Shown here one piece after another: positions 2,469 to 9,088 of a stretch of DNA of 64,000 bases (within the stretch, counting starts at the first letter, position 1; each line of letters begins with the position of its first letter). The notes under the pieces were generated by a model. It ran no database searches and was not told the origin of the DNA. It was given only the letters and a program-made list of their open reading frames with translations. The stretch lies in contig CAXXYH010000004.1 of assembly GCA_963677925.2 (NCBI GenBank), forward strand, positions 1,088,001-1,152,000, written 5' to 3'. The position numbers were made by a program, and so were the translations under genes. Origin of the DNA: Spirochaetia bacterium. GTDB taxonomy: Bacteria; Spirochaetota; Spirochaetia; UBA9216.

Positions 2469-4001
2469 TTGAGCGATGGTTCCGGTTTTCTTGATAAAAT
2501 ACTGTCTCTTATAGGAAGATCCGCTGATCCTGAAAAAGAAAAAAAGCGGCTCCTGAAAGAAATTGACAAACAGCTTAAAAAGAGCAAATTCAAGTTTTAC
2601 AAACCTAAATCAGTAGAAGCACTCTCGGCTATGGCGAAGTTCTTTTATGATATTTACCGCGTTGTGGGACCCGCAAAACTTCTCCTCGATCATGCAGAAT
2701 CTTCTGTTGTCCTTAAAACCATTATTATCGAGAATTCTCTCAATGAAAAACAGGTTGAGATTCGCGACAGCTTTGATGAATCTGCTATTCGAGAGACAAT
2801 TAAGCAGAATAACGGCAATATAAAAGCTGTAGCCGATGAGCTTAAAAACAACCTTGTAAATTTCTTCTCATTCTTTGATACAGCGAAGGTGAAGTCTATC
2901 AATTCGACTTATAACCTTATGTCTGTCTTTATTGATTTCATTTCATTTGACTTTTATTTCTTTCTGCGTAAATTCGATTCCAGATTCCCTGAAAATGATT
3001 TCAATTACAGCCCCAGATTCGAAGATATTAACGGAGAATATGTATCCGAAGATCTCAAGGATTTTCTAACGCTGATACCCTTTCTTGAACTGGACGCTGA
3101 CTGGAATAACCTTTTTGACGTTCTAAGCGCATATAAGGGCGCAGAAGTTCTCAACAGAAGCGAATGGACAAAGCAGCTGAGAAAACTAAGGGATATCAGA
3201 ACATCAAAGGTTTTTGAACTGATCATAAAAAGCATTGATAGAAACCCCTCCTACAGCTATCAGGTTTCCCGTCCGGCTAATAGAATTGTTGAGGACTATC
3301 TAACCAAGCTTAAAAGTCAGGCTGAGCTGATAATTCAGAAAATAATGAAAGAGCAGCAGAAGAGTAAACTCGATGACCTTGCGTTCAAGGTTTTTGGAAC
3401 TTCTGCTGTATCAAGAATGAATCACTATACCGAAAAGGCCAACCTTGCATTTGAGAAAAAGATGCTGGGCGGGTTTATCTACATAGCTCCAATGAACTAT
3501 CTGAAAGCTTTCCTTGTCGATTACTGTAAAAAGGATATCAGAGAGGTAAGCGATGTCCTGATAATCAGGGGTAAGTGGACTACAAATATAAACTCGCAGC
3601 AGCTCTCTGAAGCTTTTTACGGACTGATGGCTGTTGCTGATGAGGTTGTCAAGTTTGATGAGAGTCTTTCTGAAGAAGGCGCAAAAGGCGCAGAACTGTC
3701 GAAGCTTCTTAAAAGGCGCGATGCGGATAATTCACACATAGCTAAACTCAGGAAGGAGCTTAAGGACGTAAATCAGGAAGCTGCCCGCATGATAAATGCA
3801 ACCGGTCTTCACCTTATAGCTCTTGCAAAAAGCCTGAAGATGGTGATCGAAGATTTCCATAAAAAGCCGCATGAACTTATCACAAACTGGAAAGAGATTG
3901 AAAATGCGATGGATGGTCTGGTTGATGAGCGTCTTTCGGCTATCTATAAGAAAAGTTACTATTTTGTTCAGCTGCTGCAGCATTACAGCAAGAAAAAATA
4001 A
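2469..4001 (+). CDS. conserved helical hypothetical protein (possibly spirochaete DUF5312-like)
   Basis: 510-aa ORF, AGGAGG RBS, TTGACA...TAACAT promoter-like sequence upstream; family assignment tentative. Confidence 0.7.
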   Translation: MSDGSGFLDKILSLIGRSADPEKEKKRLLKEIDKQLKKSKFKFYKPKSVEALSAMAKFFYDIYRVVGPAKLLLDHAESSVVLKTIIIENSLNEKQVEIRDSFDESAIRETIKQNNGNIKAVADELKNNLVNFFSFFDTAKVKSINSTYNLMSVFIDFISFDFYFFLRKFDSRFPENDFNYSPRFEDINGEYVSEDLKDFLTLIPFLELDADWNNLFDVLSAYKGAEVLNRSEWTKQLRKLRDIRTSKVFELIIKSIDRNPSYSYQVSRPANRIVEDYLTKLKSQAELIIQKIMKEQQKSKLDDLAFKVFGTSAVSRMNHYTEKANLAFEKKMLGGFIYIAPMNYLKAFLVDYCKKDIREVSDVLIIRGKWTTNINSQQLSEAFYGLMAVADEVVKFDESLSEEGAKGAELSKLLKRRDADNSHIAKLRKELKDVNQEAARMINATGLHLIALAKSLKMVIEDFHKKPHELITNWKEIENAMDGLVDERLSAIYKKSYYFVQLLQHYSKKK

Positions 4002-4020: not shown

Positions 4021-6030
4021 CTAATCCATTATCTCTGAAATACCCGTCTTTCCTGCGGGCTTTCTGAACCAAGAGAATATAAACACAATAATCAGGCAGT
4101 TCAGTACCGAGACTGCGGCAAAAATATTCCAGGAAGGGGTACCTGATGCAATACTTCCTATCAGAGAGTATATTTTGATGCTGATGGTGTAGAGACGTTC
4201 CTCATTCAAAAAGATCAGCGGCACCATAAAGGAATTCCAGGCGGATATGAAGGCAGCCATAAAAGAGGTTACTATAACCGGAATGGACAGCGGAACGAGT
4301 ACCTTTATGAGATAACCGAACGGCTTCATTCCTTCCACCAGGGCTGCATCCCTGAAAGAGTCGGGCATACGATCAAGCCATGCTGTGATCGTGAATATTG
4401 CAACCGGAATTGCATGATAGGTACCGATTATTATCAATGGCGTGAAGGAATTAACCAGTCCTGCCTTTCTGAAAATCTCATAAAGAGGTATAAGGGAATG
4501 CATTCCCCCGGCAATACTTATCAGCTGTATTGCTGCAAGAACTGTTCCGGTAAAAATCTTTCCCCTGGTGTTCAGGTACATTGCCGCCGGGAAGCAGACA
4601 AGCGGAGTTAGAATCCCGGTGAGGGCTGAAACAATTATCGTATTTTTAAAGTAGTATATAATGTTATGCTCGCTGAAAGCCTCGCGGTAGCTTTCAATAC
4701 CCGGCGACGGCGGCAGAAACCCGTCTATGAAACAGGCGCTTATACCTGAAAAACTCATCCAAATAAGCAGGTAAATAATTACAGCAGACGAAACAATGAG
4801 CAGGCTTGAGGCTGCCAGCGATATACCGGCTGCAGGCAGTTTAATACGCCGGATTATCGGCTGTATTGAGGTCTTCCGGTTCTCCGGATCTCTTCTGTTC
4901 TGAAGTACCAGCCATACAGCTGTATAGACCGCCGGTATAATACCCGGATCAAAACCTGAAAGGAATCCGTTCTGAGCTGTTTTGATGCAGATAAAAATGA
5001 AATGAATAAAAGATGAAATATAAAAAAGTTTTCTGTTAATAAGGCCGGTAAGATAGCCCAGTGCCGGAAGCACACCTGAAAGACCGGAAAATATCAGCTG
5101 GATTAAGGCTGTGAATAATGAGAGTATTCTGAAGCGGAATGCTGCAGATTTCTTTGATGACCCCGAGATGTACCATACCGCAATAAGTACAATAATCAAA
5201 CCCGCCGTCATTACCGAGTATGCGGATGAAATTCCCATATCCTCTGTTGTATTGAAAATGTCGTAAATAAATACATCGAGGGTTGTGACTGCGCCGATAA
5301 TGAACCGGTCTGTGATACCGCTGAGCAGCGGCGGGCCGCCTGCAGTCATAAGGAAGGGAACCGAAAATTCCTTGAATGCCTTGATGAAATTGAGTATACC
5401 CATGGTAATAAGGACATTCTTAATCTGGGGCATTATGATGTAGAGGGAAACCGTTATCCGATCAGCACCGTCTATTTCAGCAGCTTCTTTCATTGTAACC
5501 GGAATACGGCTTATAGCTCCATGAATTATGAAAACCGTGAACGGCAGTGTCAGCCAGAGGTTAACGATAAGGCATGAGATAAATCCTGCAGCAGGGTCCA
5601 TCATCAGGTTGAAGCTCAGTCCGAATAGTTCCGTGAAGACTGAATTTCCCCCGTTCCCGTGTATAAGGGCCCGCCAGAGCGGTACGGCTATGTAAACCGG
5701 AATACCCCAGGGAATCAGCAGGGCCCCGTAGATTAGTTTTGAAAGTCTCTTTACCGATGACATCATTGATGCAAGAATGAAACCGGTAAAGATGCTTAAA
5801 AGCGCGGAGCCTACCGACCACAGCGCTGTGATATTGATGCTGAGCCTGAACCCGCTGTCCTGTCTGAGAAAGAAATAGTTTTCAAGTCCGGCGAATGTTT
5901 TCTGCCCGAAAATATCATGAAAGAAAGAGGTCTGAAAAGCTTCTATAAAGGGAGCAATCCCCGCCGCTGCCGTAAGAAGCAGGACGGGGATAAAGTAGTA
6001 TATGTTTTTTAATGAGCTGTCTTTATTCAA
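4021..6030 (-). CDS. ABC transporter permease, fused MalF/MalG-type (two TMDs)
   Basis: two EAA loops (MKEAAEIDGA, FRDAALVEGM) and many transmembrane segments. Confidence 0.9.
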   Translation of the reverse strand: MNKDSSLKNIYYFIPVLLLTAAAGIAPFIEAFQTSFFHDIFGQKTFAGLENYFFLRQDSGFRLSINITALWSVGSALLSIFTGFILASMMSSVKRLSKLIYGALLIPWGIPVYIAVPLWRALIHGNGGNSVFTELFGLSFNLMMDPAAGFISCLIVNLWLTLPFTVFIIHGAISRIPVTMKEAAEIDGADRITVSLYIIMPQIKNVLITMGILNFIKAFKEFSVPFLMTAGGPPLLSGITDRFIIGAVTTLDVFIYDIFNTTEDMGISSAYSVMTAGLIIVLIAVWYISGSSKKSAAFRFRILSLFTALIQLIFSGLSGVLPALGYLTGLINRKLFYISSFIHFIFICIKTAQNGFLSGFDPGIIPAVYTAVWLVLQNRRDPENRKTSIQPIIRRIKLPAAGISLAASSLLIVSSAVIIYLLIWMSFSGISACFIDGFLPPSPGIESYREAFSEHNIIYYFKNTIIVSALTGILTPLVCFPAAMYLNTRGKIFTGTVLAAIQLISIAGGMHSLIPLYEIFRKAGLVNSFTPLIIIGTYHAIPVAIFTITAWLDRMPDSFRDAALVEGMKPFGYLIKVLVPLSIPVIVTSFMAAFISAWNSFMVPLIFLNEERLYTISIKIYSLIGSIASGTPSWNIFAAVSVLNCLIIVFIFSWFRKPAGKTGISEIMD

Positions 6031-7417
6031 GAATCAGGGCTGAAATGTTTCTTACCGCCTTGATTCCGGCCGGAACAAGAGCAGCGTCCTGATCCCATAC
6101 GATAACAAGCGGGAATTCACTTTCAGAAAGTTCGCTTTCATCGCCGTAGAACATTGCAATAATTACATCATCGTTTCCTGCAAGTTCAGCAGCATCGAGG
6201 GTAATTGAGTATCCGTCAGCGGCCTGCACGGTTACAGTCTTGTAGCCGGTGTATCTTTCAAGAAGTACGTATACAGGTATGCCGAGGTATTCCACAGCTT
6301 CGCCTGCTTTTCTGTTGAAGTAGGCAACTTTTGTTCGTGAAGTAGTAACGCCGCTCTGAAGAGTCTGCCTGTCCATTACTTCGGTCTTACCGTTCTGTGT
6401 AAGATCGAGACTGAAATCCTTGAAGGCTACATCCTTGATGATAATCTTCTTTACCATTCTTGCAGAAACATGTCCGGTGATATTGGGATTGTTCGGTCCT
6501 ACCTTTACAAGCCGGATATAGCCTGGATCTTCCGGCATGTATTCGCCGTTTTCCTTGAAAGCAAGAATCCAGTCGCCGTCAGAGTTGTCCAGAAGCTGTG
6601 AAGCGCTATAACTCATGGCATAACCGTCCATTGCCTCAATTACTACTGTCATTTCAGGTGTCAGAGATGCATATTCTTCTATAAGATCGACAATTTTTAC
6701 TCCGCCCCAGATGTACTGGAAATTGTTGTCATAGCTGTTGGTGTAGTTTCCCTTGTCTTCAATGTAGTATGGAAGTTTTTCAAGCTCTGCGATTGTCCTG
6801 ACAGCATGATTTCCGCCGATGTCGAGGATTAGTTCAAAATTGTTCTCAGCAAGTGAAACCGGTTTAAGATCAGCTTTGATTGAAGCGAGTTCTTTAACCC
6901 AGAACTGGGTTGAGATGTTTCCGGTCAGCATTGGAGCTACTTTTTCACCCCTCATTGCATCTGCAATGTAGAGATCTTCAACGGCAAAATCTGCAGTATT
7001 GATTGTTGCGGAATAGCCGTCGGAGGCTGTAAGAGTAATCTGATATCCTGATTTCCAAAGTTCAGCATCAAATGCGTAGGGCATTGTTGCATCAGGATCA
7101 TCAACCATGGCAATGATGTTTTTAAAAGGAATGGCCATAAAGCTAGTATCTTCACCCTTAAGCTGGAACATGTATTCACCGTATTCCGAGCCTTCCATTT
7201 CTTTCCATTTTTCGAAATTGGATTCCCAAATTTCGTCTTCCCTGACGCCGCTGATACTGATCATCCATCCGGTTCCCTTGGGGGTTGCATGTGCGACTGC
7301 GTCAGCTTCTGTTTCTTCAATTACAAGTCCTGAGGGGCTTTGTGATGCTGTGGCGCAGCCGCTGATAAGCAGTACGGCAAGCATCAGAACTGATAATAAT
7401 TTTACAGTCAGTTTCAT
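6023..7417 (-). CDS. lipoprotein with three tandem molybdopterin-binding (sulfite-oxidase-family-like) domains
   Basis: lipobox LISGC; repeated ASDGYS/AMDGYA/AADGYS, WGGVKIVDLIE/YLGIPVYVLLE and ILAFKENGEYM..PGYIRLV motifs; no Cys other than the lipobox Cys. Confidence 0.7.
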   Translation of the reverse strand: MKLTVKLLSVLMLAVLLISGCATASQSPSGLVIEETEADAVAHATPKGTGWMISISGVREDEIWESNFEKWKEMEGSEYGEYMFQLKGEDTSFMAIPFKNIIAMVDDPDATMPYAFDAELWKSGYQITLTASDGYSATINTADFAVEDLYIADAMRGEKVAPMLTGNISTQFWVKELASIKADLKPVSLAENNFELILDIGGNHAVRTIAELEKLPYYIEDKGNYTNSYDNNFQYIWGGVKIVDLIEEYASLTPEMTVVIEAMDGYAMSYSASQLLDNSDGDWILAFKENGEYMPEDPGYIRLVKVGPNNPNITGHVSARMVKKIIIKDVAFKDFSLDLTQNGKTEVMDRQTLQSGVTTSRTKVAYFNRKAGEAVEYLGIPVYVLLERYTGYKTVTVQAADGYSITLDAAELAGNDDVIIAMFYGDESELSESEFPLVIVWDQDAALVPAGIKAVRNISALILE

Positions 7418-7431
7418 TCTATCTCCTTTTT

Positions 7432-8904
7432 TTACTGTAAATTGTTATTTATAATCTTCTGAGTCTGTTCCAGGACAGCTTCAGGAGTCATTCTTCCGGA
7501 AAGCGCGAATCTAAGCATTTTCCACATTGTATTCTTATAAATTCCGAAGGCCTGATCCGGGGGAATGATTGTTCCGGTTTCCGATCCGACGGTCAGCTGC
7601 TTCATGTATCTGTTTGCCTCTGCGGCAAGTTCCAGTGCCGCTTCTGATGCGGGTAATTTGGAAACTGCTGCCGTAAATCTCTGCTGAACTCCTGTTCCGC
7701 AGAGATATTCGATAAGTCTGACGGCTGCGGCGGTATTGCGGCTTTTTTTAGGCACTGCAAAACCCTTGAAATCAAGAAGTCCCGAAAGCCGGATTCCGGT
7801 TTCAGAGTTGATCGGCAGAGGTACTGCCTCAAAGGGGATTCCGAGCTTTTCAAAATAGGGAATGCTGTATGAGGCGCTTATGATCATTCCGACATCGCCT
7901 GATACAAACATTGATGTCATTGCATCACGTTCCATCGGCTCCATCAGCCCCCTCTCCTGCAGACTTAGAATATACTTCAGTGATTTGATATTAGCCTCAT
8001 CATTAATAATTACCGATCCGTCGGGTTCAATCAGCGTCTTTTTGCCGAAGCTTATCTGAAAGGGGATAAGAAAAGATGATGAGTAGGCATTCCATGCCGA
8101 CGGAATTATTTCCCGGTTTTTTAACTGCAGGGCGTATGTTTCATAGTCCTTCGTTGTCCAGCTGTTTTTAGGAGTCTCCATCAGTCCGGTGTTGATGAAC
8201 ATCATCTGGGCATCATAGTAAAAGGGAACCGCCCAGGTTTTTCCGTTAAGACTGAAGGCCTCCCTGCCTTCTTTTATAAGTCCTTCAGGATACATGTAAT
8301 CAAGATTCTGTATGCTTTCCGATTTTGAAAGACTTTCCATATATGTCGACTGAACCATTATTAAATCAGGGACGCTTCCGCCTCCGCCTGAAACAGCAAT
8401 GAGTTTGGAGTCGGGCCGGGGCACCGAAACCGTGTTTATGCTTATGTTATGCAGCTCTGCATATCTGCTGATTTCTTCTTTTAGAAGGTCTTCCCCTTCC
8501 CAGTTTGTCCATATTTCAAGCTTTGAAGTAATCAGCTTTTCACCCCGCAAATCGATGCCCTGCACATCCTCTACAGTCCATCCGGGACCTTTAAGTGCCC
8601 ATTCTGAATCTGTCTTGATCAAATATATCCGGGGAAGCTGATCGGCAAGCCGGGTTTCTTTTTTTTCTATCAGGCCGTCTTCTATTGAAATATTCATTTT
8701 CCAGGCGTCATACATGGGAGGGAAGAGTTCATCAATAGATATTCCAACCGCGTTATTACCCTCTGCAGGTACCGGATAGCTTAATGTCTGAAGCTTTTCA
8801 GATGTAAAAGATTTCCATGGTTTTCCATTCAGGGTGAAATCAAGAGCGTTAAGGCTTACGGAGGCTGAGACTAATAAGAGAAAAAGAATCGATTTTTTGG
8901 GCAT
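7432..8904 (-). CDS. extracellular solute-binding protein (family 1) with an extra N-terminal domain
   Basis: signal peptide; GSVPDLIMV, NGKTWAVPFY, FVSGDVGMII and GFAVPKKSRN motifs of sugar-type SBPs. Confidence 0.85.
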   Translation of the reverse strand: MPKKSILFLLLVSASVSLNALDFTLNGKPWKSFTSEKLQTLSYPVPAEGNNAVGISIDELFPPMYDAWKMNISIEDGLIEKKETRLADQLPRIYLIKTDSEWALKGPGWTVEDVQGIDLRGEKLITSKLEIWTNWEGEDLLKEEISRYAELHNISINTVSVPRPDSKLIAVSGGGGSVPDLIMVQSTYMESLSKSESIQNLDYMYPEGLIKEGREAFSLNGKTWAVPFYYDAQMMFINTGLMETPKNSWTTKDYETYALQLKNREIIPSAWNAYSSSFLIPFQISFGKKTLIEPDGSVIINDEANIKSLKYILSLQERGLMEPMERDAMTSMFVSGDVGMIISASYSIPYFEKLGIPFEAVPLPINSETGIRLSGLLDFKGFAVPKKSRNTAAAVRLIEYLCGTGVQQRFTAAVSKLPASEAALELAAEANRYMKQLTVGSETGTIIPPDQAFGIYKNTMWKMLRFALSGRMTPEAVLEQTQKIINNNLQ

Positions 8905-8907
8905 CCC

Positions 8908-9007
8908 ACTTCCTTTCCAAATACGGGAGGCTGCTCTGTTTCCGGAACAGCCCTTCGACCCTCATTCCTTAAATATTGTGATTCTTAGGTATCAGGGTTC
9001 GGAAGAA
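8908..9007 (-). promoter_or_regulatory. Moco (molybdenum/tungsten cofactor) riboswitch motif
   Basis: minus strand reads TTCCGAACCCTGATACCTAAG...GAGGGTCGAAGGGCTGTTCCGGAAACAGAGCAGCCTCCCGTATTTGGAAAGGAAG then ATG; GCCTCCCGTATTTGGAAAGG and the GAAA-capped stem are Moco RNA hallmarks; the RBS lies in the closing stem. Confidence 0.85.
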
Positions 9008-9060
9008 TAACGGGATTATTTTATATTCAATTTATGAAGGGGTCAAGGATTATATAAAAC

Positions 9061-9088
9061 GGGAGCTCCCTGAGTTAAGGGAGCTCCT
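9061..9088 (-). terminator. rho-independent terminator of the acyl-CoA synthetase gene
   Basis: GGAGCTCCCT-N6-AGGGAGCTCC hairpin with an A-run on its left. Confidence 0.7.

Follow-up and report, generated by a model that had tools for sequence, protein, structure and literature searches.

A three-gene operon on the minus strand near the start of a 64,000-nucleotide stretch of a Spirochaetia genome (assembly GCA_963677925.2, contig CAXXYH010000004.1, positions 1,088,001 to 1,152,000; this whole stretch is called the window below) stands behind a riboswitch for the molybdenum cofactor (Moco) or its tungsten form (Tuco or Wco). We consider it probable, at roughly 0.68, that this operon imports a preformed tungsten- or molybdenum-pterin cofactor or one of its late pterin precursors. 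Of these, the cofactor loaded with tungsten or molybdenum is the most likely substrate, and a late intermediate such as molybdopterin (MPT) is a less likely one. An earlier note, made from the sequence alone, had suggested a non-catalytic periplasmic binder combined with an importer for Moco, Wco or a pterin precursor. That suggestion is now supported by a riboswitch match, by a sulfite oxidase (SUOX) fold shared with the pterin-binding protein PruR, by conserved synteny in 9/9 spirochaete loci, and by the presence of the lipoprotein in 17/18 genomes that have the tungsten enzymes but lack the pathway for making their cofactor. None of the three tests that might have refuted it, on the covariance model, the fold and the link of riboswitch and operon, spoke against it. 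The riboswitch and the three genes are as follows:

8894..9016, minus strand: Moco/Tuco riboswitch aptamer (RF01055), P3-less, recognized by cmscan, folding and sequence; the AUG abuts the 3' strand of its P1 stem
7432..8904, minus strand: secreted family-1 (MalE-like) solute-binding protein, 490 aa, with an all-beta N-domain at about residues 20-125 (Pfam, model, Foldseek)
6023..7417, minus strand: lipoprotein, 464 aa, with lipobox LISGC (C21) and three tandem PruR-like truncated SUOX-fold domains at about residues 46-188, 189-334 and 335-464 (model, VIA-align, hhalign)
4021..6030, minus strand: fused MalF-like and MalG-like ABC permease, 669 aa, with two BPD_transp_1 stretches (Pfam) and NCBIfam matches to MalF at 42-274 and MalG at 455-652

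When the whole 64 kb window was scanned with cmscan, RF01055 was the sole Rfam family matched, at 8894-9016 on the minus strand with 74.5 bits (gathering score 36, E 3.7e-16). The Moco RNA motif that the earlier note had placed at 8908-9007 falls inside this match, and the idea has therefore withstood the covariance-model search proposed as a check on it. The match is complete (model positions 1-135), except that model positions 61-76, the P3 hairpin, are deleted, which makes it an RNA of the P3-less type. According to the typing proposed in PMC2408646, RNAs with a P3 stem are of the Moco type and those without it of the Tuco type, and P3-less RNAs correlate with the use of tungsten cofactor. 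The same report describes that repression by the Moco RNA of E. coli requires mogA, moeA and modC, so that the ligand of these RNAs is taken to be the metal-loaded cofactor (PMC2408646). In the minimum free energy fold of the leader (z -2.31), the 5' segment UCCCGUUAUUCUUCC pairs with the 3' segment GGAAAGGAAGUGGGA. This 3' strand of P1 is itself the Shine-Dalgarno stretch and continues into the first bases of the AUG at 8904, in agreement with the suggestion that the closing stem lies over the ribosome-binding site. From this geometry, with P1 over both the ribosome-binding site and the AUG, the leader reads as a translational OFF switch.

For the lipoprotein, Pfam recognizes Oxidored_molyb (PF00174) at residues 234-331, with 42.5 bits. 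A.DGY motifs could be located at residues 131-135, 262-266 and 399-403, and the three repeats that contain them, which had first been noticed by these motifs, are mutually homologous by hhalign (E 9e-8 to 8e-17). An AlphaFold model built from a 51-sequence alignment (pLDDT 87.8) contains three beta-rich domains, and comparison with Foldseek and VIA-align assigned them to the Moco-binding SUOX fold of sulfite oxidase, as had been anticipated when structure prediction was suggested; domain 1 is placed in the fold by its hhalign homology to the other domains only. In VIA-align, PruR structures match with Z 15.7 and a root mean square deviation of 2.5-2.6, both on domain 2 (7kp2 on model residues 187-330, 133/138 residues) and on domain 3 (7rkb on 333-464, 127/146 residues). 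Chicken sulfite oxidase gives Z 15.9 with 139 residues aligned of its roughly 190-residue Moco domain, and YedY gives Z 11.8. The proposed likeness to sulfite oxidase and YedY thus stands for the fold, but the truncated form seen in PruR is closer than either full enzyme. A phmmer search with the lipoprotein against PDB sequences gave no real match, and a profile of the lipoprotein family matched PruR 7kom as its sole hit (E 0.07). PruR is a periplasmic, Cys-less pterin binder of the SUOX fold that was solved with neopterin, in which the pterin ring lies between Tyr104 and Trp160 and is hydrogen-bonded to Asn102 (N102-x-Y104 in A. tumefaciens; PMC11194511). In the profile alignment, the window's AMDGY stands opposite ALNDY of PruR, which is the site of the pterin-contacting Asn and Tyr. 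The position of the contacting Tyr is kept as D-G-Y in all three domains of the window protein, with an invariant Asp at the position of the Asn, and among the 51 aligned homologues, 46-51 retain D-G-Y in each of the three domains, with Y or F as its last residue in domain 3.

Several features set this protein apart from an enzyme. Its N-terminus, MKLTVKLLSVLMLAVLLISGC, read by eye, has a lipobox and no twin-arginine (RR) motif. Cofactor-loaded periplasmic enzymes are exported by the twin-arginine translocation (Tat) pathway; with a Sec/lipoprotein signal and no twin-arginine, the lipoprotein should therefore reach the periplasm unfolded and cofactor-free, which argues against a Moco enzyme. 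On such sequence features, an enzymatic role for the lipoprotein is disfavoured. Its single Cys is C21 in LISGC, the lipid anchor. The earlier statement that the protein is Cys-less apart from this anchor is true of the window protein and its clade but does not extend to the family as a whole, for 25/51 aligned homologues, Thermotogae included, have a Cys in domain 3, arranged as Cys-His, CxxC-H or C-PCH (SGVSC-H, SCVSC-H, GINCTAH or GIGC-PCH). The window clade has SGVTT-SR at the corresponding site (lipoprotein residues 355-362, window ~6334-6357), near the Cys loop of the SUOX fold. It is possible that the Cys-His of the other clade is a metal ligand that the window protein lacks.

The distribution of the operon was followed in two sets of genomes. 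Among 16 operon-bearing genomes (13 spirochaetes and 3 Thermotogae), all 16 carry genes for tungsten aldehyde oxidoreductases (AOR), 4-16 each. MoaC, the MoaA C-domain and MoeA are jointly missing from the same six of these genomes, namely G005 (97% complete), G022 (92%), G024 (96%), G027 (94%) and two Thermotogae without a completeness value; each of the six has 5-9 AOR matches, mostly intact. No orthologue of the TupA of the window's host (genome G000) was found in any of the six, ModA was found in 0/5 pathway-less genomes tested, and in G022 a MoaE match is interrupted by two in-frame stops. Moco RNAs are nevertheless kept in G005, G022, G024 and G027 (3, 2, 2 and 1, respectively), where they occur only before this operon and before AOR or ferredoxin-AOR genes. 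In other words, the window-type importer is the sole non-enzyme target of Moco RNAs in these four genomes; in G022, no intact binding-protein open reading frame (ORF) stands behind the RNA. Since Moco RNAs and AORs are kept without MoaA, MoaC, MoeA, TupA and ModA, such genomes must get the cofactor from outside. Taken together with the position of the operon as a Moco RNA target and with the extracytoplasmic pterin-binding fold of its lipoprotein, this external need makes import of a preformed W/Mo-pterin the best explanation.

For co-occurrence counts, we used an even sample of 201 Spirochaetia genomes, with thresholds of E<=1e-20 for the lipoprotein and a strict E<=1e-110 for AOR. The lipoprotein was found in 43 of these genomes, MoaC in 85, MoeA in 82 and AOR in 61. 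AOR without either MoaC or MoeA occurs in 18 genomes, and the lipoprotein is present in 17 of them, spread over 9 families, compared with 18 of the 41 that have AOR, MoaC and MoeA (Fisher's exact p = 3.5e-4, uncorrected for kinship); the lipoprotein is also present in 7 of the 140 that are AOR-negative at the strict cut-off. Assembly gaps alone would predict no excess of the lipoprotein over its overall frequency among AOR genomes (36/61), so the observed 17/18 argues against gaps as the sole cause. Four of the 7 strict-AOR-negative genomes with lipoprotein (G027, G028, G074 and G200) have AORs at a looser cut-off, a search from which G167 was left out. The check suggested earlier, whether hosts of such operons lack moa genes, has a negative answer for the window's own host, but through these 17 of 18 genomes it supplies the strongest support for the idea.

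The three minus-strand ORFs have exactly the coordinates that the earlier note gave them, and they are as tightly linked as it had stated, with a 14-nt gap between the first and the second and an 8-nt overlap between the second and the third. In the binding protein, SBP_bac_8/SBP_bac_1 match at residues 138-425 of 490. As the match starts only at residue 138, the protein has an N-terminal extension, which in the model (pLDDT 93.1) forms an all-beta domain before a MalE-like part that begins at residue ~128; this fits its initial description as a family-1 binding protein with an extra N-terminal domain. The best Foldseek match is T. maritima MalE (2gha, E 7.7e-28, TMt 0.82, 18-21% identity). 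The N-domain itself shows a weak likeness to lipoprotein domain 2 (hhalign P 0.0028), and its nearest cluster in the Atlas, at a score of 0.75, has PF00174 in 19% of its members; on these weak signals we do not assign the N-domain to the fold of the lipoprotein domains. With a family-1 binding protein and two MalF/MalG-type permease domains, the operon belongs with the type I ABC importers of the carbohydrate uptake transporter 1 (CUT1) class, while all family scores of its proteins are far below the NCBIfam equivalog cut-offs (41.8 vs 291 bits for MalE). Importers of the CUT1 type commonly have no ATPase gene of their own. Likewise, neither the ORF list nor Pfam shows an ABC ATPase ORF within or beside the operon in the window, as had been observed at the outset. 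One MalK/MsmX-type ORF bearing OB_MalK lies elsewhere in the host genome (G000:C3:1739418). For the shared ATPase once proposed, a gene of the right type is thus present, but its partnership with this permease is a supposition.

Homologues were counted among 8,000 candidates scored per query, of which 134 are homologues of the lipoprotein (with names, where given, of Spirochaetales and Oceanispirochaeta) and 144 of the binding protein. From species-representative genomes, 12 loci were fetched, 9 from spirochaetes and 3 from Thermotogae. The order binding protein, lipoprotein, fused permease, judged by ORF size only, is the same in 9/9 spirochaete loci. All nine have an RF01055 match (60-79 bits) that ends at the binding-protein ORF, ends within ~20 nt before it, or overlaps it, which for the spirochaetes answers in the affirmative the question of whether homologous operons lie under Moco RNAs. 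There were no Rfam matches at the Thermotogae loci (0/3). The homologue found there is likewise a three-domain protein (32-35% identity to the window lipoprotein), and it is adjoined by an XRE-HTH regulator with a TOBE domain that most resembles those of WtpC/ModC. The Thermotogae loci also encode an energy-coupling factor (ECF) S component (PF09819, YkoE-like) that is fused to one extra domain of this kind, with an AEDGY motif (hhalign E 3e-8 to 6.5e-7), together with an ECF A-A' ATPase and a CbiQ T component. Among 8,000 candidates scored for the fused S component, 477 are relatives at E<=1e-5, one of them named Candidatus Bipolaricaulota. One binding module is therefore joined to importers of two classes that are unrelated to each other, each with a form of control related to Mo/W.

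The profile of the lipoprotein domain matched 966 cluster representatives. These include a group of cell-surface proteins (P0247-P0302) of up to 3139 aa, with as many as 9 domain copies next to PKD, Big_2, SLH, CARDB, CBM96 or NosD modules. At two of the fetched loci there are additional elements: in one relative (L014, 7091-7594), the permease gene overlaps at its end with a 167-aa NTPase_1 ORF (PF03266), which does not encode an ABC ATPase, and in one spirochaete metagenome-assembled genome (MAG; L013, 2337-2460, minus strand) a second, divergent Moco RNA adjoins the operon and precedes a 233-aa 4Fe-4S dicluster protein.

We envisage that the system would work as follows. The membrane-anchored lipoprotein, exported unfolded by the Sec/lipoprotein route and hence cofactor-free, would use its three PruR-like domains to bind extracytoplasmic pterin and pass it to the MalE-like binding protein, after which the fused MalFG-type permease would import it, powered by an ATPase encoded elsewhere, for which the one MalK/MsmX-type gene in the genome is the candidate. 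Plentiful cofactor in the cytoplasm would then bind the leader RNA, close P1 over the ribosome site and stop translation. The RNA and its position, the folds, the synteny and the gene distribution are observed; the identity of the ligand, its hand-off from protein to protein, the ATPase partner and the direction of regulation are our reconstruction. In the window's host, where the pathway is present, salvage would be at most facultative and off when cofactor is sufficient.

A number of points weigh against import of the preformed cofactor. Some concern the proteins: the PW motif, which in PruR replaces the Mo-ligating Cys, is absent (YTNSYDN in domain 2 vs YTTMLPW in PruR), and the window lipoprotein has no Mo-ligating Cys and hence no Cys metal ligand. 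The match to PruR, made through a predicted model, indicates a pterin-type pocket and does not indicate which pterin; the pocket of PruR itself has been described as not long enough for Moco (PMC11194511, PMC13259868), and the domains of the lipoprotein are PruR-sized. The MalE-like class of the binding protein, at 18-21% identity, leaves a sugar ligand compatible with its sequence. Other points concern the genomes. The host has moaA, moaC and two moeA, plus tupA under another Moco RNA, and therefore has no need of salvage. Even at E 1e-3, no lipoprotein homologue turned up in G059 (88% complete), an AOR genome without the pathway, whereas G044 and G056, which have partial lipoprotein matches, show no AOR match even at the looser cut-off. 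That cut-off was relaxed only for lipoprotein-bearing genomes, and the unbiased count is therefore 17/18. Nearly all pathway-less genomes are MAGs (55-97% complete), and since the moa, moe and tup genes of the host lie in one operon, one missing contig would remove them all together. Proteins of PF00384 occur in 5/5 pathway-less genomes tested and, if active, would need a further modified cofactor. Finally, free cofactor is labile, and the most stable Moco intermediate, cyclic pyranopterin monophosphate (cPMP), has a half-life of <1 h (PMC2408646).

The size of the pocket would suit an importer of another pterin or a breakdown product (of the neopterin or monapterin type), or else a PruR-like periplasmic sensor, with the Moco RNA providing regulatory coordination only. 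PruR, the closest solved structure, indeed binds small pterins other than Moco. We regard this explanation as unlikely: the operon partners are a binding protein and a permease and do not include a DcpA-type GGDEF/EAL protein, the Moco/Tuco aptamer is the regulator in 9/9 spirochaete loci, and the Thermotogae version adjoins a regulator with a TOBE domain of the WtpC/ModC type. In addition, the gene tracks AOR and is near-universal among genomes without the Moco pathway, a pattern that one would not expect of a general role in pterin handling. Another alternative is uptake of the metal itself, as tungstate or molybdate or in a chelated or thio form, the SUOX-like domains then binding the oxyanion. 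Moco RNAs usually control Mod, Tup or Wtp transporters (PMC2408646), the TOBE domain of the Thermotogae regulator is molybdate-type, and TupA and ModA matches are missing from the pathway-less genomes. The metal alone, however, is useless without MoaA, MoaC and MoeA, yet genomes lacking these almost always keep the operon. Considering also that the lipoprotein has a pterin-binding fold in which the pterin-stacking Tyr is conserved, and that the binding protein resembles MalE rather than ModA, TupA or WtpA, we judge metal uptake to be very unlikely.

The MalEFG class of the binding protein and permease, in which a separate ATPase is nothing unusual, would also fit an ordinary CUT1 importer of sugars or oligosaccharides. 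Expression of such an importer would be tied to the cofactor supply of AOR-based fermentation, and the part left to the lipoprotein would be that of an unrelated accessory or of a redox enzyme in the periplasm. We find this slightly more improbable still. The position of P1 over the ribosome-binding site reads as repression at high cofactor, which is the opposite of what a feeder of substrate to a cofactor enzyme would require, and the domain recurs in another phylum as a fusion with an ECF S component of the vitamin type. The redox-enzyme variant in particular has to contend with a lipoprotein that lacks a Cys ligand, a Tat signal and a redox partner. Import of a ready-made cofactor therefore remains our preferred reading of the operon.

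The nearest relatives of the capture protein are the PruR proteins of Agrobacterium, Vibrio and Klebsiella (PDB 7kos, 7kom, 7kp2 and 7rkb), with which it shares a truncated SUOX fold of ~130-140 residues, an extracytoplasmic location, the lack of a Mo-ligating Cys and the Tyr of N/D-x-Y. PruR differs in being a single domain with a PW motif that partners the diguanylate cyclase/phosphodiesterase DcpA in signalling with monapterin-type pterins, whereas the window protein has three fused domains in a lipoprotein, no PW, an ABC importer operon and a Moco/Tuco riboswitch. Sulfite oxidase, SorA, SoxC and YedY/MsrP have the same core fold and also match PF00174; compared with these enzymes, the window lipoprotein lacks a Cys ligand, a dimerisation or haem domain and a redox partner, and its signal is of the Sec/lipoprotein rather than the Tat type. 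Among transporters, ModABC, TupABC and WtpABC are the usual members of Moco RNA regulons, and tupA-like genes stand under another Moco RNA in the host itself, but these systems have ModA, TupA or WtpA binding proteins, their own ATPase and no pterin-fold protein. MalEFGK2 and other CUT1 systems with a shared MsmX-type ATPase have the binding-protein fold, the MalF/MalG halves and the location of the ATPase elsewhere in common with the window operon, which differs from them by its extra N-domain, fused permease, lipoprotein partner and Moco RNA. The logic of the system is that of riboswitch-controlled importers such as BtuFCD for B12 and the ECF or ABC importers for thiamine, riboflavin, folate and queuosine, in which a cofactor-sensing leader represses the importer of the cofactor or its precursor. 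The Thermotogae relatives, with an ECF transporter and a YkoE-like S component, resemble these vitamin importers, although the PruR-like capture protein has no counterpart among them. Surface proteins that capture large cofactors and relay them are familiar from the NEAT-domain Isd haem relay and from BtuG for B12, with tandem extracytoplasmic domains beside an ABC binding protein; their folds are unrelated to that of the window lipoprotein, and the relay is an analogy only.

Because Moco and the corresponding tungsten cofactor are so labile, the usual view is that every user has to make its own. In the literature searched, which left most subscription journals outside its scope, we found no Moco or Wco importer and no PruR-like domain tied to a transporter. 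The accessible part of a transporter survey lists classes of riboswitch-controlled cofactor importers, with none for Moco (PMC3766115), and a 2026 review points out that the passage of pterins across the membrane is not understood and that no efflux system for them is known (PMC13259868). The kind of system is familiar, a riboswitch-repressed cofactor importer, while its substrate class and capture module are not, and it probably represents the first system to be recognised in bacteria for the uptake of ready-made W/Mo cofactor. We give about an even chance to a broader picture in which this is the first dedicated bacterial importer of the intact W/Mo pyranopterin cofactor and many anaerobic spirochaetes, as well as some Thermotogae and Bipolaricaulota with the ECF version, are true auxotrophs that run several AORs on their neighbours' cofactor. 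In that picture, PruR-like capture modules would have been recruited independently by ABC and ECF importers, and the riboswitch of these cells would sense imported rather than home-made cofactor. If the operon does import the cofactor, Mo/W-pterin joins the 'vitamins' that are cross-fed in anoxic communities, and the occurrence of 5-9 AOR genes in genomes without the whole biosynthetic pathway and metal transporters is explained. It would also correct the labels 'molybdopterin-dependent oxidoreductase' and 'sugar ABC transporter' on hundreds of proteins and extend the PruR class, itself only recently recognised, beyond signalling to the capture of nutrients. In addition, two soluble proteins, one leader RNA and one operon would offer an experimental handle on the old question of bacterial uptake of free or protein-bound Moco. 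In Syntrophomonas wolfei, 'sulphite oxidase' genes stand behind two P3-less RNAs, an arrangement that the 2008 paper noted and could not explain (PMC2408646); these RNAs may belong to the same theme.

The host genome (99.6% complete) contains five copies of RF01055, which precede the window operon, a WtpA-like unit, an NAD-type aldehyde dehydrogenase, a set of tupA, moe and moa genes, and ferredoxin with AOR. The set with tupA-like genes also includes moeA, moeA-PBP, moaA, moaC, MOSC and mog-like genes. The genome encodes 6 AOR, 4 PF00384 and 3 PF02738 proteins, and the window lipoprotein is its only PF00174 match. Because of these regulon and enzyme genes, the host is, as far as gene content tells, a heavy user of the pterin cofactor that is predicted to make at least cPMP and to insert the metal. 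MoaE was not found in it by Pfam, by tblastn with relatives' MoaE, or by a custom hidden Markov model run with --max (best E 0.21), so that it lacks a detectable MoaE despite moaA, moaC, moeA, five ThiS/MoaD-like genes and 13 Mo/W-pterin enzyme genes. In relatives, a MoaE-like gene lies between a patatin gene and a 141-aa gene, and the corresponding slot of the host (C4:1697925-1698003) is empty. We do not count the missing MoaE as support for salvage: the MoaE-like proteins of relatives are divergent (22-36 bits), and MoaE is not anticorrelated with the operon.

The other Moco RNAs of the host show some features of their own. At G000:C4:666404-671000 (L006 505-5070), a Moco RNA of 70.9 bits is followed, after a gap of ~150 nt, by a 440-aa cytoplasmic protein that has no signal peptide, with a WtpA-like tungstate-binding part (TIGR03730, 109 bits); its N-part shows no likeness to the lipoprotein domains (E 0.2 or worse). 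Behind it come genes for a BtuF/IsdE-like binding protein, for a FecCD permease and for an ABC ATPase, so that the Moco/Wco regulon of the host contains a second transporter of unusual make-up. At G000:C4:793660-795225 (L007 561-2125), a Moco RNA lies directly before the NAD-type aldehyde dehydrogenase (PF00171), which, from its sequence family and position, looks like a tungsten-independent backup for AOR that would be repressed when cofactor is available. The Moco RNA before the tupA-moeA-moaA-moaC genes (G000:C3:343877-344055; L004/L008) is 179 nt long with an insert of ~55 nt at the P3 site, whereas the other four are 123-126 nt and have no such insert; two aptamer types thus occur in one genome.

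The operon is flanked by an acyl-CoA ligase gene upstream and a gene for a DUF5312 protein. Two further signals lie between the acyl-CoA ligase gene and the aptamer:

9062..9087, minus strand: intrinsic terminator of the upstream acyl-CoA ligase gene, a 10-bp stem with 7 GC pairs followed by a T-run, marking the 5' boundary of the unit
9018..9046, minus strand: promoter-like site TTGACC-17 nt-TAAAAT, with 10/12 consensus matches, ending 2 nt before the aptamer

The promoter-like site is a consensus match only, and the number of such sites in the region is not above that in shuffles. Elsewhere in the window, a 160-aa ORF without a family match occupies 116-598 on the plus strand, and the DUF5312/PDZ-like protein, of 510 aa, is encoded at 2469-4001 on the plus strand, convergent to the operon.

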